Shown here one piece after another: positions 5,457 to 63,508 of a stretch of DNA of 64,000 nucleotides. How positions within the stretch are numbered: the first letter of the stretch is position 1; every line of letters begins with the position of its first letter. A program made the position numbers and the translations under genes. A model generated the notes under the pieces. It saw only the letters and a program-made list of their open reading frames with translations, was not told where the DNA came from and did no database searches. The DNA is from an uncultured Gammaproteobacteria bacterium (GTDB lineage Bacteria; Cyanobacteriota; Vampirovibrionia; LMEP-6097; CAYGPN01), in assembly GCA_964352085.1 (NCBI GenBank), contig CAYGPN010000009.1:44539-108538 (forward strand). The letters run 5' to 3'.

Positions 5457-5471
5457 AATTTAGAGAATTAA

Positions 5472-7421: not shown

Positions 7422-7477
7422 AAAATAAGTACTCCAAAGTACATAATAACCTATATAAAGAATAAGCCTGATTGAAA

Positions 7478-15862: not shown

Positions 15863-16912
15863 TTATTTACCAAAGACATCCCAACTAAAAGTTAGCGGTC
15901 CTGCAAAAACAGGGCTATATCCAGGCTGATTATCAGCCAATCTTTGTAAAACAAATCTATACTGACCGCCACCTAAATCTTCAACACCATAAAGAATATT
16001 TCCATTAGTGTTCGGTACTACTCCTAAAGTTGTTGTTGGGTCACCACCCGTAGCATTTTGGAAGCCAACATTTATAGATTTATTTGGGAAGTTAAACCTA
16101 AACTGCGGAGAGGTATTATCTGAGACAGCATACTCTAAAGTTTTACCTGCAAGCGCGCCAGCTGGAAACGACAAAGCTGTTGTAGTATTCACTTCTCTTA
16201 AAACTGGGTTGGTTGGGTCTGCTTCAGCTGGCATCACAAGCTCAACTGTTGCTATGTAGCGAGAACCAACTTGATCAAATGTAGCTGCTTCACCAGAGGC
16301 AGTTGCATCTCCAAGACCAGTAAGCTTATTAGAACCCATAACAATATTACCGCCCATAGTAAGTCCTGTTAAAGTACCCACGCTAGTTATATTTGGCTGA
16401 GCTGCTGTTTGAACAGTACCTGTTAAATCACCAATAAAGCTTGTTGCTGTAGCTGTGCCAGTCGTTACAAAATTTCCATCTGAATTAATTGCTCCTATAT
16501 TTAATTCACCAGCAGGTCCCCTTTGAGGAACAGTATTTGGTTGATTGGCAAATACACCAGTAGCTACAGCATTACCATTTACACTTAAAACACCAGATGT
16601 TGTGATATTTAAATTTGTTGTATTAATGTCTAAATTACCAGCAGCATTCTTAGAGAATGTAATAGGGTTTGCGCTATCTTCACCAATTTGTAAAAGTGGT
16701 TCAATCGGCACAATTGCATTTGGGTTACCAACTAAAACAAATCTTTTACCTGTTGAAACATCAGTGGTATCTTGCTCACCTGCTTTATAGAACTGAATGA
16801 AAGTAGCATGAGCTGGCATTGCAGTCATAAAGATTGCAAAAACAAATAATAAAGAAGCTAGAGCTCTAGCGAGTCCTTTTTTCATATTTAGTTTTTCTTC
16901 TCTTCTTATCAT
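15863..16912 (-). CDS. Secreted phage tail-fibre-like protein.
   Basis: Signal peptide …MPAHA. Motif GSNKLTGLGDATASGEAATFDQV matches the conserved tail-fibre collar motif (SNKxTxLxxGTxxxDAVNxxQL type). Thr/Gly/Asn-rich beta-rich sequence. Confidence 0.55.
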   Translation of the reverse strand: MIRREEKLNMKKGLARALASLLFVFAIFMTAMPAHATFIQFYKAGEQDTTDVSTGKRFVLVGNPNAIVPIEPLLQIGEDSANPITFSKNAAGNLDINTTNLNITTSGVLSVNGNAVATGVFANQPNTVPQRGPAGELNIGAINSDGNFVTTGTATATSFIGDLTGTVQTAAQPNITSVGTLTGLTMGGNIVMGSNKLTGLGDATASGEAATFDQVGSRYIATVELVMPAEADPTNPVLREVNTTTALSFPAGALAGKTLEYAVSDNTSPQFRFNFPNKSINVGFQNATGGDPTTTLGVVPNTNGNILYGVEDLGGGQYRFVLQRLADNQPGYSPVFAGPLTFSWDVFGK

Positions 16913-16922
16913 CCATTCAACC

Positions 16923-25375: not shown

Positions 25376-26533
25376 TTATAAAACAGTAGCTAGCCTAGAC
25401 CAATGGCTAGTTTGAACATTATCAGAAATTTGAAAGGCTTCTTCCTTATTACAAAGCAAATAAGCTTTGGAATCTGGCTTAAGCTTCACAAAAGCCTCTA
25501 AAGATTTTCCATATTCTTTTTTTGGTGTTGCTGTGAGTTTCACTTCTGTTGCTATCACTTGCCCTTTATACTCAATTATAAAATCAACCTCTAAACCATT
25601 ATTGTCTCTAAAAAAATATATGCTTGGTTTTTTTCCTTGATGGTTAAAGAACTTAACAAGCTCACTTAAAACCAATCCCTCAAAAAGAGCTCCAGACATT
25701 GGTCCTTTTTGTATTTGCTCTTCACTTGCGTGCCCTGTAAGATGGCTTACTATTCCTGGATCCAAGAAATATAATTTTTGAGATTTCACTATACGCTTAC
25801 CTAAATTATTATGGTATGGAGGCACCAGATAAATTAATTGGCTTTTTTCTAATAAGGCAATCCAAGACTGAACTGTTAATTTGCTTACACCAAGCTCTTT
25901 TGATAGAGAAGCAAAATTCAATTCCTGAGAACTTCTTAGAGCTATTAATTTTATAAACTGGTCATAAACTTTTATATGCTCTTTTTTTATATTTGCTCTT
26001 ATATCCTTATTTAAAATTGTGTCAATGTAAGAATCAAACCATAATGTTCTATCCATTTCTTTAATATTAGGTTCTGGATACAATCCTTTAAGTACGATTT
26101 TAGACCAAAGTGGCACTTCTTTTGAATACAATTCTTGAACAGAGAAAGGATTTAAAGATAGAACAGCCATGCGCCCAGCAAGGCTTTCATGAACATCAGC
26201 CATTAGGTTAAATTGCTGCGATCCAGTAAGAACAAAAGCTCCTTCTTTTTGCTCATTATCAACTTTCTTTTTTATATATGAAAGTAAGTCAGGGGCGTTT
26301 TGAATTTCATCTATAATAAGCGGGCATTCATTATATTTTAAAAACAAGTCGGGGTCTTCATTTGCTTGCCTGCGTGTTTCTATATCATCCAAGCTCACAT
26401 AGTTATATTCTGGCAATATCGCTTTTAAAAGCGTAGATTTGCCAGACTGCCTAGCACCAGTTAATAAAATCACTTTAAACTGAGCGATTGCTTTTTTGAG
26501 AATATTTGAAAGATCTCTCTTAAAATATGGCAC
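25376..26533 (-). CDS. AAA+ ATPase of the COG1373/DUF4143 type with a C-terminal PD-(D/E)xK-like segment (paralog 1).
   Basis: Walker A TGARQSGKST, Walker B LIIDEIQ, and C-terminal …GLEVDFIIEYKGQVIATEVK. Confidence 0.6.
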   Translation of the reverse strand: MPYFKRDLSNILKKAIAQFKVILLTGARQSGKSTLLKAILPEYNYVSLDDIETRRQANEDPDLFLKYNECPLIIDEIQNAPDLLSYIKKKVDNEQKEGAFVLTGSQQFNLMADVHESLAGRMAVLSLNPFSVQELYSKEVPLWSKIVLKGLYPEPNIKEMDRTLWFDSYIDTILNKDIRANIKKEHIKVYDQFIKLIALRSSQELNFASLSKELGVSKLTVQSWIALLEKSQLIYLVPPYHNNLGKRIVKSQKLYFLDPGIVSHLTGHASEEQIQKGPMSGALFEGLVLSELVKFFNHQGKKPSIYFFRDNNGLEVDFIIEYKGQVIATEVKLTATPKKEYGKSLEAFVKLKPDSKAYLLCNKEEAFQISDNVQTSHWSRLATVL

Positions 26534-32582: not shown

Positions 32583-33713
32583 ATGCATATAAACCGGGCT
32601 CTTAAAGTAGAGATAATCAGCAAGCTTAAAGATAGTAATAAAATAATCATCTTATATGGCCCCAGACAGATTGGTAAGACCACCCTGGCTAACAGGGTCA
32701 TTGAGGATCTTGGTTTTAGAACCTTAAGCATTAATGCTGATGAGCTTAAATATAATGAGATTCTTTCCAGTCGCGATTTAACTAAGCTCAAATCTTTAGT
32801 AAGCGGTTATGAATTGCTTTTTATAGATGAGGCACAAAGAATAAAAGATATAGGCATTAACCTAAAAATCCTTAAGGATAATTTAGCTGATTTGAAAATT
32901 ATAGTCACAGGTTCCTCAACTTTAGATTTAGCAAATGAACTAAAAGAACCTTTAACAGGAAGAACCTGGACCTATAATCTTTATCCAATATCTTTCCTTG
33001 AGTTGAAAGAGCATTTTAATGACTTTGAACTAAAAGAACAGCTAGAAGAGAAAATGATCTTCGGTCTTTACCCTGAGCTTTTTAGTATCGAAAACAGAGA
33101 AGAAAAAATTCAATATCTTGAAGAAATCAGCAGGTCTTATTTATATAAAGATGTCTTGGAGATTTCAAATATTAAGCATTCTTATAAGCTTAGAGATCTT
33201 CTTAAGTTGCTAGCTTTTCAGATAGGCTCAGAAGTCTCTCTCAATGAGCTTGGCAGACAATTAGATATGTCTAAAGAAACAGTAGCTAATTACATTAATC
33301 TTCTTGAGAAATCTTTTGTACTTTATAGATTGAGTGGTTTGAGCCGTAATCTTAGAAAAGAAGTCTCTAAAATGGATAAGATTTATTTTTATGATCTTGG
33401 TATAAGAAACATTCTTATAGATAATATGAAAGATCTTAAAGATAGAGATGATAAAGGAAAGCTTTTTGAGAATTTCTTAGTTATAGAACGTTTAAAACGA
33501 AATAAATACACAGCAAATTACTGTTCAGAGTATTTCTGGAGAATATATACTGGCGCTGAATTGGATTATGTAGAAGATAAAGATGGCAAATTTTCTGCTT
33601 ATGAATTTAAGTTTGCTAAAGAAAAAGCTAAAGTACCACAATCATGGCAAGAGGCTTATTCGGGTTCTTTTGAGCTTATTAATAAGGATAACTTCTTAGA
33701 ATTTATTCGCTAA
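32583..33713 (+). CDS. AAA+ ATPase of the COG1373/DUF4143 type with a C-terminal PD-(D/E)xK-like segment (paralog 2).
   Basis: Walker A YGPRQIGKTT, Walker B LLFIDEAQ, and C-terminal GAELDYVEDKDGKFSAYEFK. Confidence 0.6.
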   Translation: MHINRALKVEIISKLKDSNKIIILYGPRQIGKTTLANRVIEDLGFRTLSINADELKYNEILSSRDLTKLKSLVSGYELLFIDEAQRIKDIGINLKILKDNLADLKIIVTGSSTLDLANELKEPLTGRTWTYNLYPISFLELKEHFNDFELKEQLEEKMIFGLYPELFSIENREEKIQYLEEISRSYLYKDVLEISNIKHSYKLRDLLKLLAFQIGSEVSLNELGRQLDMSKETVANYINLLEKSFVLYRLSGLSRNLRKEVSKMDKIYFYDLGIRNILIDNMKDLKDRDDKGKLFENFLVIERLKRNKYTANYCSEYFWRIYTGAELDYVEDKDGKFSAYEFKFAKEKAKVPQSWQEAYSGSFELINKDNFLEFIR

Positions 33714-49664: not shown

Positions 49665-51161
49665 TTGATAATAAGAAATAACAGATTAGCACCATTTTTA
49701 CTAGCGCCAGTTTTAGCAGCGGGCTGCGTCTCGCCAGCTGAAAGAATAAAAGAGCGTGACAAAATAGCGGCTGTTGAAGGTCACAGTGCTTTAGATAAAT
49801 TTAGAGACTCTTATTATAAAGCAGCTGATGAATTCTATGACGAAGTTGTAAAAACTTACGTGCTTCTTTTGCAAGACAATACAGAGAAAGCAGAAAAATT
49901 TAGAGAAATTTATCGATTAGATGATTTAAATAAATTAGATATTCCTGAGACTAAAAAGATAAGAGAGTACTTTCAAAAGAAAGGAGATACAACTTTCATC
50001 ACTAAGTTGATTCTTTCAGCAAGAGCAACAGTGCCTCTAATAGATGCTGAATATAATGTTGCGATTAATAGTGATTCAAGTACTAGTAGACTAAGAGAAC
50101 TTAAAAGAGACTGGTACGATGCTTCAGCTAATTTTCTTCTTCTCTTGCAGAGCAAGTTTAAGCGTATAGCTTTTGATAATAAGGAAGTAGATGAAGCTGG
50201 GAGATTTGGTGGATATACTGCTAAAAAGAAAATTGATATTGGTGTTTTTGGTGATGTGATTGGCACTAAAGGTTACGCAAGAAATGAAATGCAAAAAGCC
50301 ATAAAGACTTTGGAAGATAATGGTTTTCCTAGAAATGAGAATAGAGCTTTAAAATCTATAGTGCATAGTCTTCAAGGTTTAACAGCAAGTAGTTATTTAA
50401 GTGAAAAAGGATTATTAAATGTCATTCAAGGACTTAAACAAGCTTTTCCTAATGTGTTTCTAAGTGCGGCTAAATTATTTGCGACTGGTCCTTCAAAAGC
50501 GAAAGTTAAAGGTCCTAGTCTTGCAGACTTGAAAAGAAAGTCAGGTGAAGAGGCAGCGAAAAGAGCTGAGGCAGCAGATGCAGCGAAAAGTGCAGAGCCA
50601 AAGAAGGGTGCTGCTAAGGCAAAGAAAGCTACAAGAGCAGAAGGCTTGCCAGTAGCGAGAGTTTCTAGTGGTAAAAAAGTTAATGAAGCTAATAGTGAGC
50701 CGAAGCCAGTGATTAAAAAAGAACCTGTGCCTCTAAAACCAGAACTTGTAGCAAAACCGAAGTCCGAAGCTAAAGAAGCAGTTGCAGTAATCAAAGCAGA
50801 AAAGCCAAAACCTTACTTGAGAGAAATAAAAGGCGTGAAGGAGTTTACTGCTGAGCAGATTGCTGGCTATAGGGAAACTAAACCAGGAGCTTATAACTAC
50901 TACACTAAGCTTGCTGAGAGGATTAACGAAGAAGCTACTCCTCTAAAAATAATATTTAAAGATAGCAAGCATGAGCATGATGTCATAATCTCAGAAACTG
51001 ACCTTAAAGCGCTTAAGCAAAAAGCAGATGGCTTTTATAATGGCCCTAAAAAACTTATGAATCTTCGTGTGTTAGTGGGCAATGACGGAAGTGTTTATTC
51101 AATTCCCACAGCTCAAATTCAGAAATTAATCTCAGGGGGAGAAAATAATGACAGTAACTAA
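49665..51161 (+). CDS. Putative lipoprotein with a histone-H1-like Ala/Lys-rich C-terminal region.
   Basis: Lipobox LAAGC; AKRAEAADAAKSAEPKKGAAKAKKATRAEG segment. No enzymatic motif. Confidence 0.45.
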   Translation: MIIRNNRLAPFLLAPVLAAGCVSPAERIKERDKIAAVEGHSALDKFRDSYYKAADEFYDEVVKTYVLLLQDNTEKAEKFREIYRLDDLNKLDIPETKKIREYFQKKGDTTFITKLILSARATVPLIDAEYNVAINSDSSTSRLRELKRDWYDASANFLLLLQSKFKRIAFDNKEVDEAGRFGGYTAKKKIDIGVFGDVIGTKGYARNEMQKAIKTLEDNGFPRNENRALKSIVHSLQGLTASSYLSEKGLLNVIQGLKQAFPNVFLSAAKLFATGPSKAKVKGPSLADLKRKSGEEAAKRAEAADAAKSAEPKKGAAKAKKATRAEGLPVARVSSGKKVNEANSEPKPVIKKEPVPLKPELVAKPKSEAKEAVAVIKAEKPKPYLREIKGVKEFTAEQIAGYRETKPGAYNYYTKLAERINEEATPLKIIFKDSKHEHDVIISETDLKALKQKADGFYNGPKKLMNLRVLVGNDGSVYSIPTAQIQKLISGGENNDSN

Positions 51162-54100
51162 TAATAGTGGACTTAATCTAGGCGTAGGTTTGAGCGGGCA
51201 AGCTGGTGGAAATCAGCATAGCCCTAAGGATAAATTATTAGCTTTTATTGATAGTAATCTTCCTGGTGGTGAGCTTGCTAAGGCAAGAACAGAGAAACTT
51301 ATAGAAGCTATTCAAGCTAGAGACCCAGATGTAAAAATTCCTATTGCTAAAAAACATATAGAAGCCTTTCTTAATAGCAATATTAAGACTTTATACCTTG
51401 ATGGAATAAAGGGGCAGGTTGCTGGCGCAGATGCATCTGCAATAAAAGAAGAAAATATGGAGCAAGTTGAAGCTGGCGTGAATAAAATCTGGGAGAATTT
51501 TATAAGCACTAATTTTCCTTTTGTAAATGAGCCTGCTTCAGCTGTGGTTGAACCAGTAGAGCAAACTGCAGTTAAGCCAGAGCCTCTAGCTCCAGCTCAA
51601 GAAGCTGCAACTCAAAGAGAAGCTAGTGAGCCTGCTAGGCAAGTAGCTGAGACTTTTAATATGGCTTTAGCAACTGACGAAGAAAAGATTAATCATTTTG
51701 CAAAGAAAATTCAAATATTTTTGATTAAAAAGCACTTTACTTTTATCCAAAAGGAAAGCACAAGTGATGAAGATTTTACAAATAACTTGCCTGAAATGGT
51801 TGCAGAAGCTGTAAAAGCTAATATGGGTAGAATTGTCCCTGTCATGAAAGCTCTAAAGATTCCGGAAGAAGATATTGCAGCACTTGAGGTTAGGTTAGAG
51901 CATTATTTTACAACTGCTTATACTGCACTTGCAAAGACTGATCCTGAAGCTAGAAGGCTATTACTAGAAAATAAGAATTTTATCTATGAAGTCTTAGGTA
52001 CTTTAGAGTTATTAGAAAGTTTCGAGACGAAGCTTCCTGAAATTCTTGCTTATGATCCTGCAAGTATTGAAGAAGTTTTAGCTGAAGCTGAAGTTTCTAA
52101 TCCTTCGTTTGGCACATATGAGCCTTTAGTTTTAATGGATGACACTAGCGTATTAAATGAGCCAGAAGATAGCGATCTTCAAGCTCAAGCAGATGCAACA
52201 GCAGCAGTTGCTGAATTAGTTTCGCTTGAAGAAAGTCCTGTTGCTGAGCCAGAGTTTCCAGCAGCGCCTGTTGCACCTGCCCAAAGTACTCATTCTTGGC
52301 TTGATAATATAACCTCTACAGCTGTATCTAGAAACTCTAGAAGTAATCCAGCTACTGATCTTGAAGAACCTCAAAGTTTACCTTTCCCTTTAGCTAGAAA
52401 TCCTGAGTTTGATCCTGAGCCGTCACAAGTAGCTCCACGTATAAGTGTAGACACCTTTTATGAACCTGTTCCTAATAATATTCATGAAGCTGCTCCAGGA
52501 AGTGGAAGGCATCGTATTCCAGTTCTAGATGTTTCTGTTGAAGACGAAAAGACCCCTAAATCTCCTAGTGACACTGATCTAGCTATTAAAGTTCCAAGTG
52601 ATGATGAAATTGCTGCTGTTGCTACTGAAGAAGAGATTCCTCTTGAAGATTATGAAGCAGGTTTTGATGATCCAGAAGATGGATCAGAATTGAATATTTT
52701 CAATGCAGAAGGCAACCCTTCAGAAAGTATAACTAGATCTTCTATAAAAATAGAAAATCCTCATGCAATTCCATTAGCACCACTTCCTAGCCCTCAAGCA
52801 CTACCACCACTGCCGCCAATGCCTAGTTTTGCAGTTCCAAGTGTTGTTGAAGAACCTACATCACCACCATTAGCTAGCCCTGCGGCAATTCCAGTGGCAC
52901 CTACTGCTCAAAGTCCTCTTATTGAAGAGCCGTCTCAGCCAGTTAATCCAATTGCTGCTATCCATGCGGCTAGACCTTCACTAGCTATTGATTTTGATGA
53001 TCCAGTTGAAGCTAATACCACTCCTGTTTTTAATGATGATGATGCGCCTATTAAGCCACTTAAAAAAAGACGAGCTGGTCTTTGGTTAACAGGACTTGGT
53101 TTAACGGGTGCTGGAATCGCAGCTACCGTTTTCGGTCTCAGCGAAAGAGCTAAAACTAAAAAAGAAGGACCTAAAAAACTATTAAATAACGGTTCTGATA
53201 CTGATCCTAAAAAAGGAATGCATGTATCTGTAAAAGATCCTAAGGCTAAAAATCCTGTGGGTCTAGAGACAACTGATTTTCCAGAGACAAAACCGAAAGT
53301 TGACGTGATTAAGCCTAAAACTGATAAACCTGATTTTAATCCAGATGAGTTTGAAGCGGAGCTTGAAAGCAAAAAGCTCACGAAAGAAGAGTTAAAGAAA
53401 TTAAACCCTATTTTAGGAAATTTAAAAAAGCTGATTCCAATTCTAGGTGGACTTTATAAGGCTCATCCAGAACATTTCTCAAACTTTGATATAGATGTAG
53501 CTAATAATGCTGCTAAAGCTTATGAAGCTCTAGAGAAATCCGTAGAGTCTGGCAAAAAAGCTGGGCAGCTTGATGAAGCTAACAAGCTCGAGCAAGCTAT
53601 GGGTGCTGTAATACTTAGTGTTAGACGAAAAGTTGTTGCTGCACAAGAGAAAGCTACACGTGATGCAAAAATTAAAGCTGCTCAAAAATCTAGAGAAGCT
53701 CAAATTGAAAAAGTTCAACGAGAAGCTGAAGCAGCGAAGTCTGCAGAAAAAACTGCTAAAGGTCCAGATAAAGCTAAAGCAAAAGCGAAGACTAGAGCAT
53801 CTTTAACTAGGCTTGACTTTATTAAGAAGATTAATGAAGCTTTGAAGAATGAAGAAGCTCAACGTGGGTCTGCTTCTTTTAAAGCTATTGAAAAGATATA
53901 TATCCCTGATGCAAGTGTTTTTGAGGGTTTGAGAGCTTTAGATGATGGTAAAGATCCAAGAATAACACTTATTACTACGACTGACTCTGCAAGAGAGAAA
54001 ATCTTAGTTGCTGGTGTTGTGACTATGAAGTTAGGCAAGGCTAATTTTAAAGATACTAAGACAGCAGCAGACAATCCTTATAATGATAAGGTTGGAGGCT

Positions 54101-54648
54101 TTCTTTCAATACCACAAAGTGAGATTAAAAAATTAGGTTATGTAGAGAAAAGTGAATTTAAAGGATTTTTGAAGAACCCAGAAAACTTTGTTCAGGCATT
54201 GTTTGGTGTTAGAGCTGAGAAAAGTGCTGATGCTGCAGTTCCTGAGCGCAGAACTGAAAAAGCAGGTCCTGGTGATATCAAACCTAGTAAAAAAGCAGAT
54301 TTAACTAGCTATGCTGCATCTAATCCAAGCATTGCTTTTAAAACTGTATTTGAAGAAGATCTTAGTCTTGAAGATATCTTTGATGGTGGCGCTAAAGTTA
54401 GGATGACTTTCACTTCTGATAAGCAAACACCAAAGGTTATAAGAGCTAAGAGTTATGATCTTGTGATTCAAAATGATCTAAGCTTTAGTAATTCTAGAGG
54501 TGAGTTCTTTATTGATGGCGAAGATGCTGTAGGTATTCAAGGTGATTATTTCTTTGCTTATGATCCTAAAACTAAGCAAGTTTATAAGCTGAAGATGATT
54601 AACGTGAAGAACACTGAGACACTTCAAGAGTCAGTAAGAGTTAAATAA
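51148..54648 (+). CDS. Giant (1166-aa) single-pass membrane protein. The N-terminal half is acidic and Pro-rich (PLPSPQALPPLPPMPS); the C-terminal half is Lys-rich coiled coil followed by a globular part.
   Basis: One central TM helix GLWLTGLGLTGAGIAATVFGL; the start overlaps the preceding gene by 14 bp. No known domain recognised. Confidence 0.5.
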   Translation: MTVTNNSGLNLGVGLSGQAGGNQHSPKDKLLAFIDSNLPGGELAKARTEKLIEAIQARDPDVKIPIAKKHIEAFLNSNIKTLYLDGIKGQVAGADASAIKEENMEQVEAGVNKIWENFISTNFPFVNEPASAVVEPVEQTAVKPEPLAPAQEAATQREASEPARQVAETFNMALATDEEKINHFAKKIQIFLIKKHFTFIQKESTSDEDFTNNLPEMVAEAVKANMGRIVPVMKALKIPEEDIAALEVRLEHYFTTAYTALAKTDPEARRLLLENKNFIYEVLGTLELLESFETKLPEILAYDPASIEEVLAEAEVSNPSFGTYEPLVLMDDTSVLNEPEDSDLQAQADATAAVAELVSLEESPVAEPEFPAAPVAPAQSTHSWLDNITSTAVSRNSRSNPATDLEEPQSLPFPLARNPEFDPEPSQVAPRISVDTFYEPVPNNIHEAAPGSGRHRIPVLDVSVEDEKTPKSPSDTDLAIKVPSDDEIAAVATEEEIPLEDYEAGFDDPEDGSELNIFNAEGNPSESITRSSIKIENPHAIPLAPLPSPQALPPLPPMPSFAVPSVVEEPTSPPLASPAAIPVAPTAQSPLIEEPSQPVNPIAAIHAARPSLAIDFDDPVEANTTPVFNDDDAPIKPLKKRRAGLWLTGLGLTGAGIAATVFGLSERAKTKKEGPKKLLNNGSDTDPKKGMHVSVKDPKAKNPVGLETTDFPETKPKVDVIKPKTDKPDFNPDEFEAELESKKLTKEELKKLNPILGNLKKLIPILGGLYKAHPEHFSNFDIDVANNAAKAYEALEKSVESGKKAGQLDEANKLEQAMGAVILSVRRKVVAAQEKATRDAKIKAAQKSREAQIEKVQREAEAAKSAEKTAKGPDKAKAKAKTRASLTRLDFIKKINEALKNEEAQRGSASFKAIEKIYIPDASVFEGLRALDDGKDPRITLITTTDSAREKILVAGVVTMKLGKANFKDTKTAADNPYNDKVGGFLSIPQSEIKKLGYVEKSEFKGFLKNPENFVQALFGVRAEKSADAAVPERRTEKAGPGDIKPSKKADLTSYAASNPSIAFKTVFEEDLSLEDIFDGGAKVRMTFTSDKQTPKVIRAKSYDLVIQNDLSFSNSRGEFFIDGEDAVGIQGDYFFAYDPKTKQVYKLKMINVKNTETLQESVRVK

Positions 54649-54750
54649 GAGCTTAAGATATAGCTGAAAACCCTCGGTTTTAAGGGGTTTTTGACTATTT
54701 TTATCAAATTATATATAGCCCTTTCTTTTTATTAAAGGAGAGAGGGATAA

Positions 54751-56502
54751 ATGATTATTGCAGCTATAAAACAGCCTATAAATTTAGATAAATTGCTTAA
54801 AACAAAAGCAGCAGATAAGGCCGAGAAAAAAGATAATTGCCCTTTAGGTGAAGATACTTTTTTATGTCAGGATATTGATCCAGCTAGACCTACTCCAGTT
54901 AAAAAACAAACTATTACTAATCCTGGATCTAAAAATCCTGGACTTTATTTTCTTTATAAAAAGAAAGCTGGTGGTGGCGTAGATATAGTTCCAGTTCAGA
55001 AAATTGCTGATGGCACGTCTACACAAACTTATTATAGAGAACTTGGTTCAAATAAACTTAAGTGTGAAGCTTTTGATTCAAAAATAAAGGTCTTTGATAT
55101 AGCAAATTTCCCTGGAGTTTTAGGCATTAGGTTTAAAGATGGAAGCTACAAAGAGTTTAAGCCAGGTGATATTAAAGCTAAGGGAGCAGATTATGAGCTG
55201 ACCTTAAGAGAATCAGGAAGTACTTTTAAGCATAAATTATCTGATATTAAAACCATAAAGAAAGTTTTTTATGGTTATAAAGTCTTTCAGGAAAGATATC
55301 TAAAGCTAGCTACTGTTAATGGTGATATGAAAGCTAAGAAGCTTTATTCATTAAGAATGAAAGATGGTTCTATAGTTATTGCTAAATCAGAAAAGGTTAA
55401 TAATAAGCTTGTTGGATTAAAAGATATTACAAATAATAATGTAATAGAGACAGGGAAAATTAATTTCTATAAAGATATCTGGTTCCCTAGTACAGGAGAG
55501 CAATTAAACGTTACTAGAAAAACAGATGGCAAAGTTTTTACAGGCTTAGTATCTAATAAAAGTGCTGCTAAAGTAGCAAGTATTTATGTAAATGACACTA
55601 AGGGTACTATCACTACTATTCCTTATGATCAAATTACTAAGATAGAGCGCGCTGATAAACCTAAAGATGAAGCTAAAAAAGAACTTCCTAAAGCTAAAGC
55701 TTTAGCTTTAGGGCTTCTTAAACTTAAACATGGTCAAGTGTATACAGGCTTATTTAGAGAATATAAAGGCACAGTTTATCTTGCTGCTCATGAGACTATG
55801 AAAGTTTGGACTACTTCTAAAGCGAATTCTAATGACCTAACGGCTTTGAAAGTTGATGAGGCTTATACAGTTGATGAAAAAACTTATAATGAGCTAAAAG
55901 CCAAGCTTGATAATCACATTAATATGGAGACTGCTAAAGAAAAAGCTGCAGAGAAAAAAGCTAACTTAGTGAGAATTGAAAAGATAAAACAAGCTGTAAG
56001 TTTAGAAAGAGCAAAAGGTTTTAGCCTTTATAAAAAAGGCGACAAGCTGGTAGCAGGAAGATATATCGTCAAAAGAATTACTAAAGATGGGGAATTAGCT
56101 AAAGCTTATGAAGTAGTTAGTAATGATGGTAAATTAACTAAGAAATACGAAGTTACTGCTAGTGGCTCTAAGAGAGCAAGTGGCAGATTCTCTATGATTA
56201 CTCGCACAGGTAATACTTTCCTTTATAAAGAAGTCGATCCTAAGACTGCATCTTTAGGATTAGCTAAAAGAAAAGAGCTAAAAGCATTTCTTGCTAAGGG
56301 CTTTAAAAGATATTCTAAAACTATGACTTTTGTAAATGGTCAGAAATACACAGTTAAACTTTTCTCTTCCAGGGGAGAGAATGATATTGTAACTATTGCT
56401 GAAGCTGGAGTTTTAAAATATCTAAATTCTAAAACTAAGAAGCTGCATGTTCTAAAGATGGAGCGCCCGTCTCAGTTGATCCTGATCAAAAAATCACCTT
56501 AA
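54751..56502 (+). CDS. Hypothetical 583-aa protein with internally repeated ~60-aa modules.
   Basis: Repeated GxKxxxGxYxVxxxTxDGxxxKxYEV-like modules; no signal peptide. Confidence 0.45.
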   Translation: MIIAAIKQPINLDKLLKTKAADKAEKKDNCPLGEDTFLCQDIDPARPTPVKKQTITNPGSKNPGLYFLYKKKAGGGVDIVPVQKIADGTSTQTYYRELGSNKLKCEAFDSKIKVFDIANFPGVLGIRFKDGSYKEFKPGDIKAKGADYELTLRESGSTFKHKLSDIKTIKKVFYGYKVFQERYLKLATVNGDMKAKKLYSLRMKDGSIVIAKSEKVNNKLVGLKDITNNNVIETGKINFYKDIWFPSTGEQLNVTRKTDGKVFTGLVSNKSAAKVASIYVNDTKGTITTIPYDQITKIERADKPKDEAKKELPKAKALALGLLKLKHGQVYTGLFREYKGTVYLAAHETMKVWTTSKANSNDLTALKVDEAYTVDEKTYNELKAKLDNHINMETAKEKAAEKKANLVRIEKIKQAVSLERAKGFSLYKKGDKLVAGRYIVKRITKDGELAKAYEVVSNDGKLTKKYEVTASGSKRASGRFSMITRTGNTFLYKEVDPKTASLGLAKRKELKAFLAKGFKRYSKTMTFVNGQKYTVKLFSSRGENDIVTIAEAGVLKYLNSKTKKLHVLKMERPSQLILIKKSP

Positions 56503-56526: not shown

Positions 56527-57075
56527 ATGCAAATCAAGGCAAAAATACTCCCTATAGCCAGTTCCAACATAGATACAGACCAAATAATTCCAGCTAGATA
56601 CCTTACTGGGATCTCTAAAGAAGGTTTGGGGCAGTATCTTTTAGAAGATGTGCCTAATAGCCCTATTAATGATGAGAAGTATAAAGGCGCTAAAGCGATA
56701 GTAACTTTAGAGAATTTTGGATGTGGTTCATCTAGAGAGCATGCTGTTTGGGCGATTATGGATCGTGGTTTTCAGGCTGTAATAGCTGTGAGTTTTGCTC
56801 GTATCTTTGAAGAGAATTGCTATAACAACGGTCTTGTGCCAGTGAAGTTAGAGGCGAAATATGTAGAAGAAATTTTAAAAGACGTTCAGGGAGAAGCTGA
56901 ACTAGAGATTGATGTAATTAATCAAACGCTTAAATACCAAGCTGGCAAAGATATTCGTGAGCTTAAATTTGATCTTGATCCACTTAAAAAAGAATTTATT
57001 TTAAAGGGTGGCTTTATGAAGTTTCTAGAAGCTAAAGTGCCTGATATTAAAAAATGGGAAGCTACTGCTAAGTAG
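56527..57075 (+). CDS. leuD: 3-isopropylmalate / homoaconitate-type dehydratase small subunit (archaeal-type short LeuD).
   Basis: 182 aa; GCGSSREHA and IIARSFARIF-like blocks of the aconitase swivel domain. Confidence 0.65.
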   Translation: MQIKAKILPIASSNIDTDQIIPARYLTGISKEGLGQYLLEDVPNSPINDEKYKGAKAIVTLENFGCGSSREHAVWAIMDRGFQAVIAVSFARIFEENCYNNGLVPVKLEAKYVEEILKDVQGEAELEIDVINQTLKYQAGKDIRELKFDLDPLKKEFILKGGFMKFLEAKVPDIKKWEATAK

Positions 57076-57077
57076 TT

Positions 57078-58517
57078 TTAGTTTTTAAGCGAATTTAAAA
57101 TCTCAAAGAAATTAGGGAAGGAAGTCTTCACAAATTCTGTTTTATGAATTTCTATAGGCTTAGTAGAATGTAAAGCTGCTATCGCTGCGCTCATAGCTAT
57201 TCTATGATCTCCATGACTATCGAAGATGATCTTTTCATCAGTCACTTTAGCCATATCATTTTCGTAGCCAGAGTTTGGCTCAAAAGGCTTTCCATTTCTG
57301 CCTTCTATAATCATCCCGTCAGGTTTCTCTTCTACATTAACTCCAAGAGCTAGAAGAAGATTAACAGTGGTTTTGATGCGATCTGATTCTTTTACTCGCA
57401 GTTCTTCAGCATCTTTAATAATAGTAGTGCCATCAGCTTGCGCAGCTAAAACCGCGATGATAGGAATCTCATCAATAAGACTAGGGATAAGCTCTTTACT
57501 AATAGTAGTAGCTTTAATTTCTGAATCTTTAGCAACTATGTCAGCCACTGGCTCGCCAGCTTCTACTCTTTTATTACCAAGGCGATACCTGACTTGCATT
57601 TTGTCAAAGACTTTTAGAATTCCAGTGCGCGTTGGGTTAATCCCAGTTTCTATAAGAGTTAATTCGGCTTTAGGTAAGATCGCTGCAGCTACCATAAAAA
57701 ATGCGGCACTAGAAATGTCACTAGGAACTCTAAAGTTCTGCCCTTTAAGCTCTTCTTTAAGTGTTTTAATGGATACGCAAAATCTGCTTCCTTCTTTGTA
57801 GACACTAAGATCAGCGCCAAAGGCTTTAAGCATAAGCTCGCTATGATTTCTTGATAGCTCAGGCTCAGTAACAGTTGTTGTGCCTTCAGCGTTTAGCCCT
57901 GCTAGCATAAGGCAGGATTTTACTTGGGCTGAGGCGATTGAAGAGTCATAGTTAAAGCCAGCGAGCTTTAATTCTCTATTAGTAAAATTACTGAGATTTC
58001 CATTCTCGCCTTTATTAATTATTAAAGGAGCAAAATTATCTTCTCTAGCTTCTATATTTGCGCCCATTTTTTTAAGTGGCTCAACCACTCTTTTCATAGG
58101 TCTTTGACTTAAATACTCATCACCAGTTAGCACTGTCTCAAAAGGCAAGCCCGCAAATAATCCAGATAAAAGTCTAATTGATGTGCCGGAGTTTCCCAGA
58201 TAAATTTCTTTATCAGGTTTTTTCAGTGCGCTAAAACCTTCACCATGAATAATAAGCTGCTTAGGTCTTTGGTCTTTACTAAGGTTTGCGTAGCTAGGAG
58301 GAAGATTTTCTATTTCTTTTTCTTCGGTCTTTACTCCCATCGCCTCAAAAGCAGCTTTAGTGCAGAGGCAATCTTCAGATGCTAAATAGTTATTCACTAC
58401 TGTCTTGCCTTTAGCAATTGAGCCAAAGATAATAGATCTATGCGTTATAGATTTATCGCCAGGGACTTTAATCTCTTTGCGAACTTCCTTGCTGATTGCT
58501 CCTACAGTTTCTTTCAT
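57078..58517 (-). CDS. aroA: 3-phosphoshikimate 1-carboxyvinyltransferase (EPSP synthase).
   Basis: KVPGDKSITHRS…LGNSGTSIRLL and C-terminal …DHRIAMS… motifs. Confidence 0.8.
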   Translation of the reverse strand: MKETVGAISKEVRKEIKVPGDKSITHRSIIFGSIAKGKTVVNNYLASEDCLCTKAAFEAMGVKTEEKEIENLPPSYANLSKDQRPKQLIIHGEGFSALKKPDKEIYLGNSGTSIRLLSGLFAGLPFETVLTGDEYLSQRPMKRVVEPLKKMGANIEAREDNFAPLIINKGENGNLSNFTNRELKLAGFNYDSSIASAQVKSCLMLAGLNAEGTTTVTEPELSRNHSELMLKAFGADLSVYKEGSRFCVSIKTLKEELKGQNFRVPSDISSAAFFMVAAAILPKAELTLIETGINPTRTGILKVFDKMQVRYRLGNKRVEAGEPVADIVAKDSEIKATTISKELIPSLIDEIPIIAVLAAQADGTTIIKDAEELRVKESDRIKTTVNLLLALGVNVEEKPDGMIIEGRNGKPFEPNSGYENDMAKVTDEKIIFDSHGDHRIAMSAAIAALHSTKPIEIHKTEFVKTSFPNFFEILNSLKN

Positions 58518-58662: not shown

Positions 58663-59877
58663 ATGAAATCAATAAAAAGAGAAATTAACCAAGATATTTT
58701 AAAATATCTTGGAAACGATCAAATACTGCTTTTAATTGGTGCAAGGCAGGTAGGTAAGACTACAATTCTGAGGCAGATCAAGACTCATCTAGAAGTTCAA
58801 AGCTTGCAGACTCATTTTATTAATTTAGAAGATCCAGAGTACTTAGCATTAATAAATGAATCACCTAAAAATCTTTTTAAAATATTGTCTATAAATCTAG
58901 AAAGTAAATCTTATATTTTTATAGACGAGATTCAGTATCTAGATAATCCTAGTAATTTTTTGAAATATTTTTATGATGAATACGGCGAGAAAATGAAGCT
59001 TATAGTTTCAGGTTCTTCTGCCTTTTATATAGACTCAAAATTTCAAGATTCGTTAGCTGGAAGAAAAAAGATCTTTTATGTGCGCAACTTGTCATTTAGT
59101 GAATTTCTATTATTTAAAGACCAAGAAGCATTATCTAAAAAAAGCTATATCTCTTTAAGTCTTAAAGAGAAAGACATAGTGCAGCGTGCTTTTGAGGAGT
59201 ATCTTGTCTATGGAGGCTATCCTAGAGTGGCTCTAAGCTCTGATCTTGAAGAGAAAAAAGAGATTTTAAGAGAGCTTGCTTACTCATATATTAAAAAAGA
59301 TATTTTTGAATCAAAAATTAAAGATGATAAGTCTTTTTATGCTTTGATGAGAATTCTGGCTGACCAAGTAGGCTCACTAGTTAATTCAAATGAACTGGCG
59401 TCTACCCTAGCTATTTCCAAGTCTAGTGTTGATAACTATCTAAATATCTTGCAGAAATCTTTTCATATATTTTTAGTGAAACCTTTTAGTAAAAACATAC
59501 GTAAAGAGCTTACTAAAATGCCTAAAGTCTATTTTGCTGATATGGGCTTGAGGAATTTTCTGGTGCGCGACTTTGAGCCATATGCTCTTAGAAGTGATAA
59601 AGGAGAGCTTTTAGAGAATATAGTTTTTAGGAAACTTTTAGATACTAATCATCATGAGGATATTATGTTTTGGAGAACTGCTGAAAAGCAAGAGCTAGAC
59701 TTTGTCTTGCAGGATAAAGCTGCAATTGAAGTTAAGGCTAATCCAGAAAAGTTTAATGTCAAAAAATACCAAAAATTTATAGAAGTTTATCCGGAAAAAG
59801 AGCTTAGTTTGGTTTCTTATGATTACAAAGGCTCTGCAGACTTTCCGGTTAAATATAAAGATGTTTTAGAGCTTTAA
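58663..59877 (+). CDS. AAA+ ATPase of the COG1373/DUF4143 type with a C-terminal PD-(D/E)xK-like segment (paralog 3).
   Basis: Walker A IGARQVGKTT, Walker B IFIDEIQ, and C-terminal QELDFVLQDKAAIEVK. Confidence 0.6.
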   Translation: MKSIKREINQDILKYLGNDQILLLIGARQVGKTTILRQIKTHLEVQSLQTHFINLEDPEYLALINESPKNLFKILSINLESKSYIFIDEIQYLDNPSNFLKYFYDEYGEKMKLIVSGSSAFYIDSKFQDSLAGRKKIFYVRNLSFSEFLLFKDQEALSKKSYISLSLKEKDIVQRAFEEYLVYGGYPRVALSSDLEEKKEILRELAYSYIKKDIFESKIKDDKSFYALMRILADQVGSLVNSNELASTLAISKSSVDNYLNILQKSFHIFLVKPFSKNIRKELTKMPKVYFADMGLRNFLVRDFEPYALRSDKGELLENIVFRKLLDTNHHEDIMFWRTAEKQELDFVLQDKAAIEVKANPEKFNVKKYQKFIEVYPEKELSLVSYDYKGSADFPVKYKDVLEL

Positions 59878-61214
59878 AGACTATTAGCGCTAGTAATCTT
59901 GCCTTTAATCGCTGAAGCAGCTACAGTAGCTGGGCTTGCTAAATGAGCTCTAGATCCTGTACCCATACGTCCAGGGAAATTGCGGTTTGTTGATGACACG
60001 CATCTGTTTTTAGGAGCAACTACTCCCATGCTCATTCCTAGGCATGGCCCGCAACTAGCATGCGTCCAAAGCGCGCCAGCATCTTGGAAAATATCATGCA
60101 AACCTTCTTTCTCTGCTTGCCTTTTAACAGCCTGAGAGCCTGGAGTTATGATAGTTGGCACAGCTACTTTCTTTCCTTTTAAAATATCAGCAGCAATTCT
60201 CAAATCAGAAATTCGAGCGTTTGTGCAGCTACCTATAAAAGCTTGGTCAATTTCTAAATCACCAACTTTATCACCAATTTTAAGTCCCATATAATCTAGA
60301 GATTTGTTTTCAGCATCTTTAGGAATAGTGCCTGTCGTAGAGACAGTCTCACCAGGATTTGTGCCCCAAGTAATTTGAGGCTCGAGTTTAGAAATATCTA
60401 GTTCAACAACCTCATCATAACTAGCATCAGCATCGGCTTTAAACTGTGACCATTTTTCTTTTAATTTTTCAAACTCAGCAGGGTCTTTTGGAAGCATCTC
60501 TTTACCTTTAAGGTATTCAAAAGTCACTTCGTCAGCTTCTATCATCCCGCTTGTAGCGCCAGCTTCAATAGCCATATTACAGATAGTCATGCGCTCTTCC
60601 ATATCAAGATCTTTAATAGCATCACCAGTGTATTCAAGCACGCAGCCAGTCCCACCTTTAAAAGTTACTTTATTAATGATCGCTAGAATGATATCTTTAG
60701 CGTAAACACCAGGCTTTCTTTTACCAGTAACATTGATTTTCATTACCTTAGGTTTTTTAAGAAGCAAGCACTGAGATAACATCGCACCAGCATTAGCAGT
60801 AGTTCCAATTCCTAAAGCAAAACATGCAAAGGCACCATTAGTGCAAGTATGACTATCACCGCAACAAAGAGTCATGCCTGGCTGCACGTAACCGCGTTCA
60901 GGAGCAACGATATGACAAATACCATTTTCACCAATATCAAAATGTCTAATGCCATGTTTTTTAGACCACTTTCTTAAAAGCTCTGCTTGAATAGCTGTAG
61001 CGGTATCTTTAGCTGGAGCCACGTGATCATTAATAGCTAGTATGCGATCTGGCTCGTAAATCTTACCGCCAAACTCTTCATCAATTTGAATAGCGCCTTG
61101 TGGAGTTGTGATTTCATGAGCCACGATGCGATCCATGAAAATTAAATAGTTGCCGCCCTCAAGCTCTTCAACTACATGTGCGTTCCATACTTTTTCAAAT
61201 AATGACTGTCCCAT
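59874..61214 (-). CDS. leuC: 3-isopropylmalate / homoaconitate-type dehydratase large subunit (archaeal-type LeuC, aconitase family).
   Basis: Aconitase-family Fe-S ligands GSCTNARISDL and ASCGPCLG; about 420-450 aa, the archaeal-type size. Confidence 0.7.
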   Translation of the reverse strand: MGQSLFEKVWNAHVVEELEGGNYLIFMDRIVAHEITTPQGAIQIDEEFGGKIYEPDRILAINDHVAPAKDTATAIQAELLRKWSKKHGIRHFDIGENGICHIVAPERGYVQPGMTLCCGDSHTCTNGAFACFALGIGTTANAGAMLSQCLLLKKPKVMKINVTGKRKPGVYAKDIILAIINKVTFKGGTGCVLEYTGDAIKDLDMEERMTICNMAIEAGATSGMIEADEVTFEYLKGKEMLPKDPAEFEKLKEKWSQFKADADASYDEVVELDISKLEPQITWGTNPGETVSTTGTIPKDAENKSLDYMGLKIGDKVGDLEIDQAFIGSCTNARISDLRIAADILKGKKVAVPTIITPGSQAVKRQAEKEGLHDIFQDAGALWTHASCGPCLGMSMGVVAPKNRCVSSTNRNFPGRMGTGSRAHLASPATVAASAIKGKITSANSL

Positions 61215-61239
61215 ATCTGTTCTATATTAGCATTTAGCT

Positions 61240-61267
61240 GGATTGCTTCGCTTTACTCGCAATGACA
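61240..61267. repeat. Partial copy of the palindromic repeat element (ggattgcttcgctttactcgcaatgaca).
   Basis: Matches the 3' half of the unit; lies between leuC and the chaperonin gene. Confidence 0.7.
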
Positions 61268-61270
61268 GGC

Positions 61271-62851
61271 TTAAACATTTCTAGCTTGCAGCACTGTATT
61301 AATTTTTAAGATTTGACAAGCAATCTCTGAAGCGATTTTAAAAGCATTAATCTTTACCTCTAAAGGATCTAATATCCCAGCTTCAAGTAAATTTATAATT
61401 CCGCCAGTCTCTAGGTCATAGCCAGCCACTGATTTATTAGCTTTTAGACTGATGTTTTGTCCATTTAAAATAGTTTCGAGCATTAGCTCTGAATCAAAAC
61501 CAGCGTTCTCTACTATCTGATTGAACAAAGCAGCAAGGCTGTGTTTCACAATTTCCATTCCAGCTATTACGTCTTCTTGGTATAACTTTTCTTTATTAGA
61601 TTTCGCTATTAATTTATCTAATGGTCTGATTGCATTAAGCTCAGCAATGCCTTCACCCAGCACAAAACCAGATCTGTAAGCAGCTTGCATAGCTTTCGCT
61701 GCGTCAATAGCTATGCGTTCTTTTTCATTAGCTAAAACAGATGTTTCTGCTGAAATTAAAACTGTTGGTAGGTAAAATTTATCGCCCTCTATGCTAATTC
61801 CACCAAGCTCAGCTTCTAGATTTAATTTTTTAATTTTACCGCTTAGTTTTTTTACTGCTTCAGCTGATGTTATATTAAAAAGATTTTGCCTAGTTAGCAT
61901 TTTAGTCCCTGAGCATAGTGCTATAGCTTTTAAATCTTGTTTTTGTATTTGAGTTAAAACAAAAATGCCTTCTTTTACAAAATACTCTTCGATATTTTGG
62001 TACATAGAAGCATCTACAAAAACCGCTTTGACTCCAGCTTTAGCAATAGTCTTAGCTGTTTCTCTTATTACTTGAATGTTGTTTGAAAATTTCTTAACGC
62101 CCTCATCAGTTGTTACTGACTCCGGTGGAACTGCTTCAGGCTCAAAAGCACCCTCAATTACCAAAACAGAAATATCTTTAAAGGTTTTATAGTCATAATT
62201 AAAATGACTTTTCTTTTTAACGAATAATCCATCTATGATTTTAGTTTCATGACCCGGGTAAGCTTTAATCAAAGTAGAAAAATCAAAACTTTTATCTATA
62301 AAAAAGTCTTCACCGTGTTTTTTGTTTTTCTTTAATAGCTTGGATGCTGCATTGATGACAGTTTCAGCTATCTTTTTTTCATTCCTTGCTGAAATAAGAG
62401 TGAGTGCTAGAAGATTTTCATCATCTATGCCCTCTATTTTTTGTGCTTGTTTTTTCAAATCATCTAAAACGCTTTTAAGCCCAAGTTCAATACCTCTAAT
62501 GAGTCTAGTAGCTGAAATCCCTGATCTAATTCTGTAAAGTGCTTCAGTTAATAATGCATCAGTTAGAATCGTTGCTGTAGTAGTGCCATCACCTACTTTA
62601 GATTCTTGAGCCTTCGCTACTTCTATAGCTAATTTAGCAGCAGGGTGACTAAGTTCTATTTTAGAAAGAATCTCAACACCATCATTTGTGCAAGAATAAT
62701 CGCCGTATTGATCAACTAGCATAACGTCTAAACCCTTAGGACCAACAGTTCCGCGAATTGTTGCAGCTAAAGATTGAATTGCAGCGATATTAGAACTAAG
62801 AATTTCTATATAGCTATTTTGGATATTTTCGCTTCTTTTGTTATTTTCCAT
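61271..62851 (-). CDS. Group II chaperonin (thermosome/CCT-like Cpn60), not GroEL.
   Basis: [13 protein letters not shown] (compare thermosome TLGPKGMDKMLVD), …[44 protein letters not shown]… (compare …[43 protein letters not shown]…). Confidence 0.75.
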   Translation of the reverse strand: [526 protein letters not shown]

Positions 62852-63013
62852 CTTTTATATATAAGTATAAAACTTGGCTGGCTTTTCTTGCCGCTTATCT
62901 ATTATTTACACAGTTTTAGGGCTTTTTAAGCATTTTTGATTTTTTTAAAGGTCTTAACTAGAGCTTAACCATGCCTTGATATAAAACATTAGACGGTAAA
63001 ACGGAGAAAAATC

Positions 63014-63508
63014 ATGGGAAGAAGCATAACAGCAAGTCAGAGTCAATTAACCAAGCTAAAAAGTCTTGAGCAATCAGCCCAAGAGAAGATAGATTCTTTA
63101 GGTGCTGGAGTTCAAAGCGCGGCAGATAAGCAGGCCTTAAATATAGAACTAGGTAGATTATCTCAAATTCGTGGTCAAATCTCGTCAGTAAATGCTGAAA
63201 TCAGATCAACTGAAGGTACTGATACTGATAAAAAAGACGCTAAAAAGCAGTCTGAAATTAAAGACGATGTAAAAGCTGAAGATAGTAAGCATGTTTCAAA
63301 AACTGAAAGTTCATCAAAGAGTGGTGGTTCTAAAGGTCTAAGCTATTTAGATCCAGCACCAGAAGCTAAAGACACCAAGAACATCGGTGCTTATGGTCAG
63401 TCTAATACTCAAAGCTCGCCAGCAGCTGATACTAAAAATGCTGATGCAGCTAAAAGTGATTCTGCGAAAGGTAAAACAGATACTTCTAATAAGAGCAAAA
63501 ATAAGTAA
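63014..63508 (+). CDS. Hypothetical Ser/Lys/Asp-rich low-complexity protein.
   Basis: 164-aa ORF followed by a strong rho-independent terminator. Confidence 0.4.
   Translation: MGRSITASQSQLTKLKSLEQSAQEKIDSLGAGVQSAADKQALNIELGRLSQIRGQISSVNAEIRSTEGTDTDKKDAKKQSEIKDDVKAEDSKHVSKTESSSKSGGSKGLSYLDPAPEAKDTKNIGAYGQSNTQSSPAADTKNADAAKSDSAKGKTDTSNKSKNK

Follow-up and report, generated by a model that had tools for sequence, protein, structure and literature searches.

What kind of chaperonin does a bacterium carry when its gene looks more like an archaeal thermosome than like GroEL, and how is such a chaperonin expected to work? The question is raised by a gene at positions 61271..62851, on the minus strand, of a 64,000-nucleotide stretch of contig CAYGPN010000009.1 (hereafter the window), where an uninterrupted open reading frame (ORF) encodes 526 amino acids. 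A preliminary description had called the product an archaeal-type Group II chaperonin. Part of this claim held, in that the protein is thermosome/CCT-like and bears its own lid; the assignment to Group II did not. Very probably, the product is a working chaperonin of the bacterial thermosome-like family, Group III, in a melainabacterial host, its function being deduced by homology; domain matches, matches to solved structures and a predicted fold all bear on this assignment. The bacterial Group III family reportedly goes back to Techtmann and Robb in 2010, whose original definition is taken here from An 2017 and from Conway de Macario 2017. Its prototype is Ch-CPN of Carboxydothermus hydrogenoformans (PDB 5X9U/5X9V; An et al. 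2017, PMC5635000), and a Group III ancestor, ACIII, has been resurrected (PDB 9RWQ; PMC12696368).

The ORF is a real chaperonin gene, given that residues 28 to 524 of its product form an end-to-end match to the Pfam family Cpn60_TCP1 that lies far above chance (E 1.1e-81, 275 bits against a cutoff of 34). Among curated families, the thermosome models of NCBIfam score highest and cover the protein full-length in one stretch (206 to 208 bits), whereas the GroEL models match in two separate stretches (147 to 164 bits), the better-scoring of which is the N-terminal equatorial part. The earlier view that the protein is thermosome-like and not GroEL is therefore upheld, and best hits to GroEL, which were looked for as the finding that would speak against it, did not appear. 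The scores fall short of the thermosome cutoffs (208 against 450 for thermosome_alpha and 207 against 671 for thermosome_arch) and of the GroEL cutoffs (352 to 582), and they are far under cutoff for all CCT subunit models. Judged by these models, the protein is thermosome-like, yet a standard member of neither family.

Solved structures point to Group III. In a phmmer search against all PDB chains, ACIII ranked first (9RWQ; 4.9e-92, 312 bits) and Ch-CPN second (5X9U; 1.6e-75, 258 bits), with lower scores for the ancestral Group II protein ACII (9RWP; 2.9e-53, 185 bits), archaeal thermosomes (8.7e-48 at best, no more than 167 bits) and CCT subunits (about 1e-31, about 112 bits). An AlphaFold2 (AF2) model built on 27 relatives predicts the full-length three-domain fold with high confidence (predicted local distance difference test score, or pLDDT, 89.5; predicted template modeling score 0.85). 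When this model was compared with the PDB by Foldseek, the two Ch-CPN entries came first (5X9V, E 2.3e-39) and next (5X9U, E 5.4e-35), at template modeling scores of 0.77 to 0.83, ahead of the best Group II structure, thermosome or CCT (E 8.9e-31). With regard to naming, the molecule name in PDB entry 9RWQ reads 'Ancestral Group II Chaperonin (ACII)' while the paper gives 9RWQ as ACIII; the similarity pattern described here fits the paper.

Do the residues that distinguish the groups agree with this ranking? Group III chaperonins are without the nucleotide-sensing loop of Group II, being six residues shorter there, and carry Arg155 where Group II has Lys; their lid is shortened, with hydrophobic residues crowding its tip (An et al. 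2017, PMC5635000). In Ch-CPN, Arg155 contacts the gamma-phosphate and Asp373 is the catalytic residue (PMC5635000). We rebuilt Ch-CPN numbering from the phmmer PDB alignment, read the signatures in a 69-sequence alignment and gauged conservation in a 27-sequence alignment of the clade around the window protein, which includes relatives down to 37% identity. The nucleotide-sensing segment has 16 residues in the window protein against 22 in Group II; the six-residue loop is missing, and in place of its conserved Lys stands Arg156 (62384..62386, minus strand, as for the other sites of this gene), the equivalent of Ch-CPN Arg155. Arg occupies this position in 19 of 19 clade members, in 22 of 22 canonical Group III sequences and in all six sequences from Gloeobacterales. 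The phosphate-binding loop GDGTT (residues 87 to 91; 62579..62593) aligns with Ch-CPN residues 86 to 90, and Asp383 (61703..61705) with the catalytic Asp373; both are invariant across the 27 sequences, whose 39 invariant columns also include GPxG, NDG and R156.

The lid tells a similar story. The built-in lid, or helical protrusion, of the apical domain spans residues 232 to 272 (Ch-CPN 223 to 263; 62036..62158), and in the AF2 model a long helix at 249 to 271, following a strand at 225 to 233, would form this protrusion. The lid region is four residues shorter than in archaeal thermosomes (56 against 60), a difference that in Group III lies ahead of helix alpha-11, and in a larger set of 191 sequences the lid segment measures 38 residues in Group III and 42 in Group II. 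The segment in question forms an inter-subunit beta-strand in Group II and is four residues shorter in the window protein, as it is in Group III. The whole clade shares the missing insertion, the Arg and the shorter lid and has kept D383 and GDGTT. With neither the nucleotide-sensing loop nor the longer lid present, the thermosome cutoffs far off and the best matches (9RWQ, 5X9U and 5X9V) in Group III, the label 'Group II' is wrong.

How, then, might such a chaperonin work? Ch-CPN and ACIII are homo-hexadecamers, built as two rings of eight, with ATP-dependent refolding and a Hill coefficient of about 1 (PMC5635000, PMC12696368), and it is by homology with these two that we would predict the oligomeric state, ATPase and refolding activity of the window chaperonin. 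On the pattern of Ch-CPN, we posit that the subunits would form a homo-oligomeric double ring (8 + 8) that, while open, would receive an unfolded client. ATP would occupy the equatorial GDGTT site, and closure of the chamber would need no GroES, being the work of the lid that every apical domain carries. We expect Arg156 to touch the gamma-phosphate and Asp383 to be the catalyst of hydrolysis. With the Group II nucleotide-sensing loop missing, the ring should close on ATP binding and with little cooperativity, as in Ch-CPN.

Set beside the known systems, the window protein has its best sequence and fold matches in Ch-CPN and ACIII and shares with them a bacterial host, a three-domain subunit with built-in lid (here predicted), the absent nucleotide-sensing loop, the Arg at the gamma-phosphate position, the lid shorter by four residues, the catalytic Asp and GDGTT. 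It differs from Ch-CPN in being about 32% identical to it, in having V/V/F/I rather than L/F/Y/F at the lid tip and in lying in a tandem with leuC rather than in a grpE-dnaK-dnaJ operon; its host is a low-GC (guanine-plus-cytosine) melainabacterium and that of Ch-CPN a thermophilic Firmicute, and Ch-CPN has been characterized while the window protein is known from its sequence. With Group II (thermosome structures 1Q3R, 1A6D and 3KFB; CCT/TRiC) it has in common the overall fold and a built-in helical lid, and by homology it would share the eight-fold rings and independence from GroES of Group II and the solved relatives. Group II differs in its six-residue nucleotide-sensing loop with Lys, its lid longer by four residues, its archaeal or eukaryotic hosts and an identity of 26 to 28%. 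GroEL (Group I) is homologous in the equatorial ATPase domain (31% identity over about 157 residues) and likewise has a bacterial host, but its rings are seven-fold, its subunits carry no lid of their own and it depends on GroES, whereas the window protein has a lid and no groES or groEL lies in the window.

Where does the protein fall among chaperonins at large? Homologue searches returned about 37 close relatives (38 to 60% identity, 476 to 511 amino acids), nearly all of them unnamed metagenomic proteins; after these come Firmicutes-type Group III proteins at about 33% identity and then archaeal thermosomes, about 28% identical. Among species-representative genomes, the closest relatives lie in metagenome-assembled genomes (MAGs) of Melainabacteria, Vampirovibrionia and Caenarcanales, together with some labeled Gammaproteobacteria, and the more distant ones in Gloeobacterales, many Paenibacillus, Syntrophomonadaceae, Limnochordia and Armatimonadota. 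A profile of the clade, searched against 1.84 billion representatives, gave 23,962 matches at E <=0.001, and indel classes were assigned to the full-length matches (440 to 600 amino acids) among the best 150. From 711 down to 283 bits, all of these carry the Group III indel signature except an intermediate outlier at 300 bits (P0182); at 274 bits and below, they show the Group II or an intermediate state except P0192 (264 bits), which is partial and has a truncated lid.

Trees were built by neighbor-joining (NJ) distance only, with E. coli GroEL as the single outgroup and without CCT sequences; GroEL is the most distant sequence in them. In the 191-sequence tree, a split that separates all 81 sequences with the Group III signature from Group II plus GroEL appears in 78 to 79% of bootstraps under two distance corrections, the grouping of the melainabacterial clade with Group II appears in 0 to 4%, and the clade itself is recovered in 98%, with three orphan intermediates (P0148, P0154 and P0169) joining at its base. 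The clade is likewise firm in a sparser tree of 69 sequences (99.5 to 100%), as are the archaeal thermosomes (100%). The 191-sequence tree gives moderate support for placing the window chaperonin with Group III, as a clade apart from Groups I and II.

Several observations weigh against this placement. Every NCBIfam chaperonin model stays below its cutoff on the window protein, and the support of 78 to 79% comes from distance trees only and is moderate rather than final. The 69-sequence tree joins the clade with Archaea in 54 to 61% of bootstraps and unites all bacterial sequences in 28 to 29%. Mean identity between the clade and canonical Group III is 29.6%, about equal to the 29.8% between canonical Group III and Archaea, for which reason the clade is a long branch and very divergent. 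The shared indel states may be ancestral, in that GroEL too is without the six-residue insertion (69-sequence alignment). By tblastn, neither the 64-kb window nor the surroundings of any chaperonin from the melainabacterial clade or from Gloeobacterales contain dnaK, dnaJ or grpE, the context on which the family's authors lay stress. At the lid tip, the window protein has V246, V252, F255 and I262, hydrophobic but not identical to Ch-CPN L237, F243, Y246 and F253, which the Group III literature calls 'strictly conserved'; Val stands at the F243 position in 16 of 19 clade members. Those four residues are not strictly conserved in canonical Group III either, where they were found in 18 (L), 18 (F), 13 (Y) and 18 (F) of the 22 sequences sampled, while Gloeobacterales are canonical at three of the four positions, with L/F/(Y,F), and have Leu in four of six sequences at the fourth.

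Could the clade instead have split off deeply among the lid-bearing chaperonins, as the sister of Group II or as a fourth branch of its own, and resemble Group III only in retained ancestral states? The sparse tree, an identity to Group III no higher than that between Group III and Group II, the possibly ancestral lack of the insertion, and the differing gene context and lid-tip residues would all fit such a lineage. We nonetheless regard it as improbable: dense sampling that included the three orphan intermediates reversed the result of the sparse tree, bringing the clade into Group III and leaving next to nothing of its union with Group II, and the grouping of clade and Archaea was accordingly rejected as an artefact of long branches and sparse sampling. 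Mean identity of the clade to archaeal thermosomes (25.8%) is also below its identity to Group III, the profile ranking places Group III matches above those of Group II, and among solved structures both sequence and fold matches rank Group III first. Might the long branch mean something else, namely that the protein is chaperonin-like but degenerate or repurposed and has ceased to work as a folding chamber driven by ATP, much like the divergent MKKS/BBS-type relatives of CCT in eukaryotes? The changes at the lid tip, the loss of the heat-shock operon context and small surface insertions at residues 179 to 182, 420 to 423 and 462 to 468 could be read in this way. This is very improbable in our view, given that the nucleotide-binding and catalytic motifs are all invariant across the clade, that the full-length fold is predicted with high confidence, that the lid-tip positions are still hydrophobic and that the insertions are located in surface loops of low pLDDT.

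Two further origins fare worse. Recent acquisition of a true Group II thermosome from an archaeon would explain the overall thermosome-like architecture and the lead of the thermosome models among curated families, but identity to archaeal thermosomes is only 26 to 28%, the nucleotide-sensing loop and longer lid are absent, and the scores lie far below the thermosome cutoffs. GC content is unremarkable (0.38 around the chaperonin in a window range of 0.33 to 0.40), and synteny is kept across relatives at 34 to 60% identity within the same bacterial lineage. For these last two reasons recent transfer is unsupported, no sign of it being seen at this gene, and we hold the archaeal acquisition to be extremely improbable and already effectively refuted. 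The same verdict, put more strongly still, applies to a chaperonin carried by a phage or mobile element or to a divergent GroEL paralogue, an origin that we find barely conceivable. Marine viruses do carry thermosome-like chaperonins (PMC5649160), the PHROG family 'chaperonin groEL' matches the window protein (E 2e-48), and an AAA_14/DUF4143 gene has been inserted nearby; yet the viral contigs with thermosome-like genes yield relatives only 24 to 28% identical over full-length matches, on which ground a viral origin was rejected, and the neighbors are housekeeping genes. As for a GroEL paralogue, the GroEL models match in two stretches and below cutoff, no groES lies nearby, and E. coli GroEL is the sequence farthest away in the trees; this combined explanation, too, is effectively refuted.

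The searches that support the Group III placement also brought up proteins of other kinds. Three sequences (P0182, P0188 and P0215) have intermediate indels: their nucleotide-sensing segment is 19 residues long and their lid segment 40 or 32, as compared with 16 and 38 in Group III and 22 and 42 in Group II; they could inform how Group III and Group II diverged. Four others are of double length (P0167, 1057 amino acids; P0180, 1047; P0218, 1081; P0222, 1078) and contain two to four chaperonin-matching stretches. These look like tandem-fused thermosome-like chaperonins with two subunits per polypeptide.

If the window protein is a Group III chaperonin, why is it not encoded beside dnaK? Group III chaperonins are described as encoded inside the hsp70 operon (grpE-dnaK-dnaJ) 'with one exception' (PMC5635000, PMC5220055). 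To survey neighborhoods, E. coli DnaK, DnaJ, GrpE, GroEL and GroES, together with the LeuC and AroA of the window, were compared by tblastn with all fetched loci. The order chaperonin-grpE-dnaK-dnaJ was found in Paenibacillus, Syntrophomonas, Limnochordia and related loci, and in Armatimonadota loci grpE directly follows the chaperonin gene. The window chaperonin lies outside any such operon, and we regard the dnaK operon, as the literature does, as usual for the family but not as defining it: the authors themselves admit an exception, and the Gloeobacterales members are without the operon. In Firmicutes, Group III chaperonins are accessory to a canonical GroEL/GroES of the same genome; here, no groEL or groES was detected in the 64-kb window or within about 8 to 10 kb of the chaperonin in any fetched locus.

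What stands beside the chaperonin gene instead is leuC (59874..61214, minus strand), which encodes the large subunit of 3-isopropylmalate dehydratase and follows downstream on the same strand after a 56-bp spacer (61215..61270). This neighbor had been described as an archaeal-type LeuC, a reading that was not borne out: its best score is to PRK05478, whose cutoff it passes (537 against 510), it just misses PRK12466 (530.2 against 531), and it fails the archaeal model IPMI_arch (373.7 against 410). The two PRK models presumably represent the common bacterial LeuC type. In the window and 11 related loci (L003, L005, L006, L015, L016, L017, L027, L037, L082, L084 and L085), leuC adjoins the chaperonin gene on the same strand, usually with aroA next, and in 9 of the 12 subclade loci, the window included, the spacer between chaperonin and leuC measures 10 to 74 bp. 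The tandem is kept as chaperonin identity falls from 60% to 34%, with LeuC meanwhile 81 to 84% identical. In the window, aroA (EPSP synthase; 57078..58517, minus strand), third in the conserved order chaperonin-leuC-aroA and recognized by the Pfam family EPSP_synthase and by synteny, is separated from leuC by a gene for an AAA_14/DUF4143 ATPase, assigned by Pfam (58663-59877, plus strand); leuD lies beyond (56527..57075, plus strand). Neither the leuC tandem nor the dnaK-operon arrangement occurs in Gloeobacterales or in a further melainabacterial subclade (L007-L014). In Gloeobacterales, which are basal cyanobacteria, we found Group III-type chaperonins at six loci (L018, L031, L040, L044, L058 and L075). 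They share with the window protein the broad Cyanobacteriota/Melainabacteria host group, the indel signature and a position outside the dnaK operon, but they are only about 30 to 32% identical to it and have no leuC partner. The grouping of the melainabacterial clade with Gloeobacterales that vertical cyanobacterial inheritance would lead one to expect appears in only 2 to 5% of bootstraps in the NJ trees.

Does the changed context imply a changed regulation? No CIRCE/HrcA operator was found in the window with up to 3 mismatches allowed. The 162-bp intergenic region upstream of the chaperonin gene (62852..63013), shared with a divergent ORF, has a weak sigma-70-like match at 62929-62901 on the minus strand, a promoter candidate only. 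Counts in the promoter and terminator scan around the chaperonin gene were at chance level; its usable point is that no terminator-like site lies in the spacer before leuC. The leuC tandem and the lack of CIRCE anywhere in the window suggest housekeeping rather than HrcA-controlled heat-shock expression. Could the chaperonin be co-transcribed with leuC, and could LeuC be its client? Like constitutive expression, both ideas are speculative. The divergent ORF (63014-63508, plus strand; 164 amino acids) is of low complexity, with a coiled-coil-like N terminus, a tail rich in Lys, Ser and Asp, and a weak FlxA-like match (E 0.004). ORFs of like composition occupy the same position in two related loci (L084 and L085), with sequence similarity to them that is not significant (E 0.8 to 8.5). 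For want of significant similarity to these positional analogues, we do not claim the ORF as part of the chaperonin system.

In our reading, the melainabacterial subclade has left the family-typical grpE-dnaK-dnaJ operon and forms the tight tandem with leuC, and usually aroA. One could go further and suppose that this subgroup has been uncoupled from DnaK and from heat-shock control and either is functionally tied to the Fe-S enzyme LeuC as its dedicated or preferred client or is the remnant of a Group III chaperonin that the common ancestor of Cyanobacteria and Melainabacteria possessed. We think this rather unlikely. In its extreme version, some genomes would be without groESL and dependent on the Group III chaperonin alone. 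If it were true, the ancestral-remnant option would favor an old, vertical bacterial origin of Group III over a single transfer from an archaeon to Firmicutes.

In whose genome does the gene reside? The preliminary description had placed it in a bacterial gene context, and this is confirmed by curated bacterial models passed by window genes (L11_bact, 200.7 against 141.85; rplA_bact, 295.7 against 216.3; dnaN, 294.6 against 137.65). For the window NuoN, the top-scoring model is that of NAD(P)H-quinone oxidoreductase subunit N, which we take to be of the cyanobacterial NdhB type. Among the 120 best homologues of ribosomal protein L1, all named ones come, as a check of their taxonomy confirmed, from Candidatus Melainabacteria, Caenarcaniphilales, Gastranaerophilales or 'Cyanobacteriota', and the closest is only 73% identical. 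These L1 matches indicate that the host is a melainabacterium without close sequenced relatives, that is, a member of the non-photosynthetic sister lineage of cyanobacteria. Some contigs of the related loci bear other labels: 'uncultured Gammaproteobacteria' (L003, L004, L015, L016, L037, L053 and L082), 'Proteobacteria' (L008) and 'Betaproteobacteria' (L046). The Gammaproteobacteria labels are doubtful because L1 and LeuC similarity contradict them; on most contigs with conflicting proteobacterial labels, LeuC is 81 to 84% identical to that of the window, and L046 groups with an Aneurinibacillus sequence at 100% bootstrap. Such MAG contigs are probably mislabeled or misbinned. A further locus, L085 (GCA_013565675.1, JACCDV011210003.1), is a 198-kb contig of melainabacterial type in an assembly whose contig numbering runs beyond 1.2 million, which suggests a bacterial associate or contaminant in a large, possibly eukaryotic, assembly.

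What is new in all this? Thermosome-like chaperonins of bacteria entered the literature in 2010; crystal structures followed in 2017 and reconstructed ancestors in 2025, and the phenomenon is already known and explained as Group III. As a single gene, the window chaperonin is thus the expected kind of protein with the expected mechanism, and of modest interest. Two hypotheses have been published for the origin of Group III, a relic of the GroEL/thermosome ancestor and an early transfer from an archaeon to Firmicutes (PMC5635000, PMC12696368); ancient horizontal transfer is therefore one of two hypotheses for Group III as a whole, and the present data favor neither. What appears to be new is the melainabacterial Group III clade itself, its divergence (about 30% identity to canonical members, the altered lid tip included) and its systematic absence from the dnaK operon, with the chaperonin-leuC(-aroA) tandem instead. 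In the open-access full-text literature, we found no paper naming Melainabacteria together with thermosome, and the text of the supplements to the 2017 and 2025 Group III papers mentions no genus of Cyanobacteria or Melainabacteria.

The clade matters beyond the single gene. Like the Gloeobacterales and Armatimonadota members, the well-supported and very divergent Melainabacteria clade adds non-Firmicutes lineages for which any scenario for the origin of Group III must account. The proposed partnership of Group III with DnaK rests largely on operon context, and the melainabacterial clade shows that this context is not universal. The curated NCBI models miss the melainabacterial chaperonins. 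One clade member, from a Candidatus Caenarcaniphilales MAG (P0125, NQY80231.1), is annotated in GenBank as 'hypothetical protein', and the clade is probably under-annotated systematically.

Other features of the window and of related loci deserve brief mention. Rfam and tRNA scans of the window found nothing, and its other genes are of housekeeping type (SLT transglycosylase, S1, NAD kinase, PRPP synthetase, QueG, an amidase and pentapeptide-repeat proteins). The AAA_14/DUF4143 ATPase gene between leuC and aroA has a paralogue at 25376-26533 (minus strand), and a third ORF at 32583-33713 (plus strand) has a weak RuvB-like AAA match only. While leuC and aroA are adjacent in most relatives, L084 also has an AAA_14/DUF4143 copy between them, which suggests that this gene is mobile or has been inserted repeatedly. 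Large ORFs without a Pfam family occur at 14231-19025 on the minus strand (473, 349 and 700 amino acids) and at 49665-56502 on the plus strand (498, 1166 and 583 amino acids); the latter have positional counterparts in L084 of 536 and 1256 amino acids, likewise without a Pfam match. Directly upstream of the chaperonin gene of L053, at 2939-7652 on the minus strand of that locus, stand four tandem, near-identical ORFs of about 298 amino acids with flagellin-like N termini.

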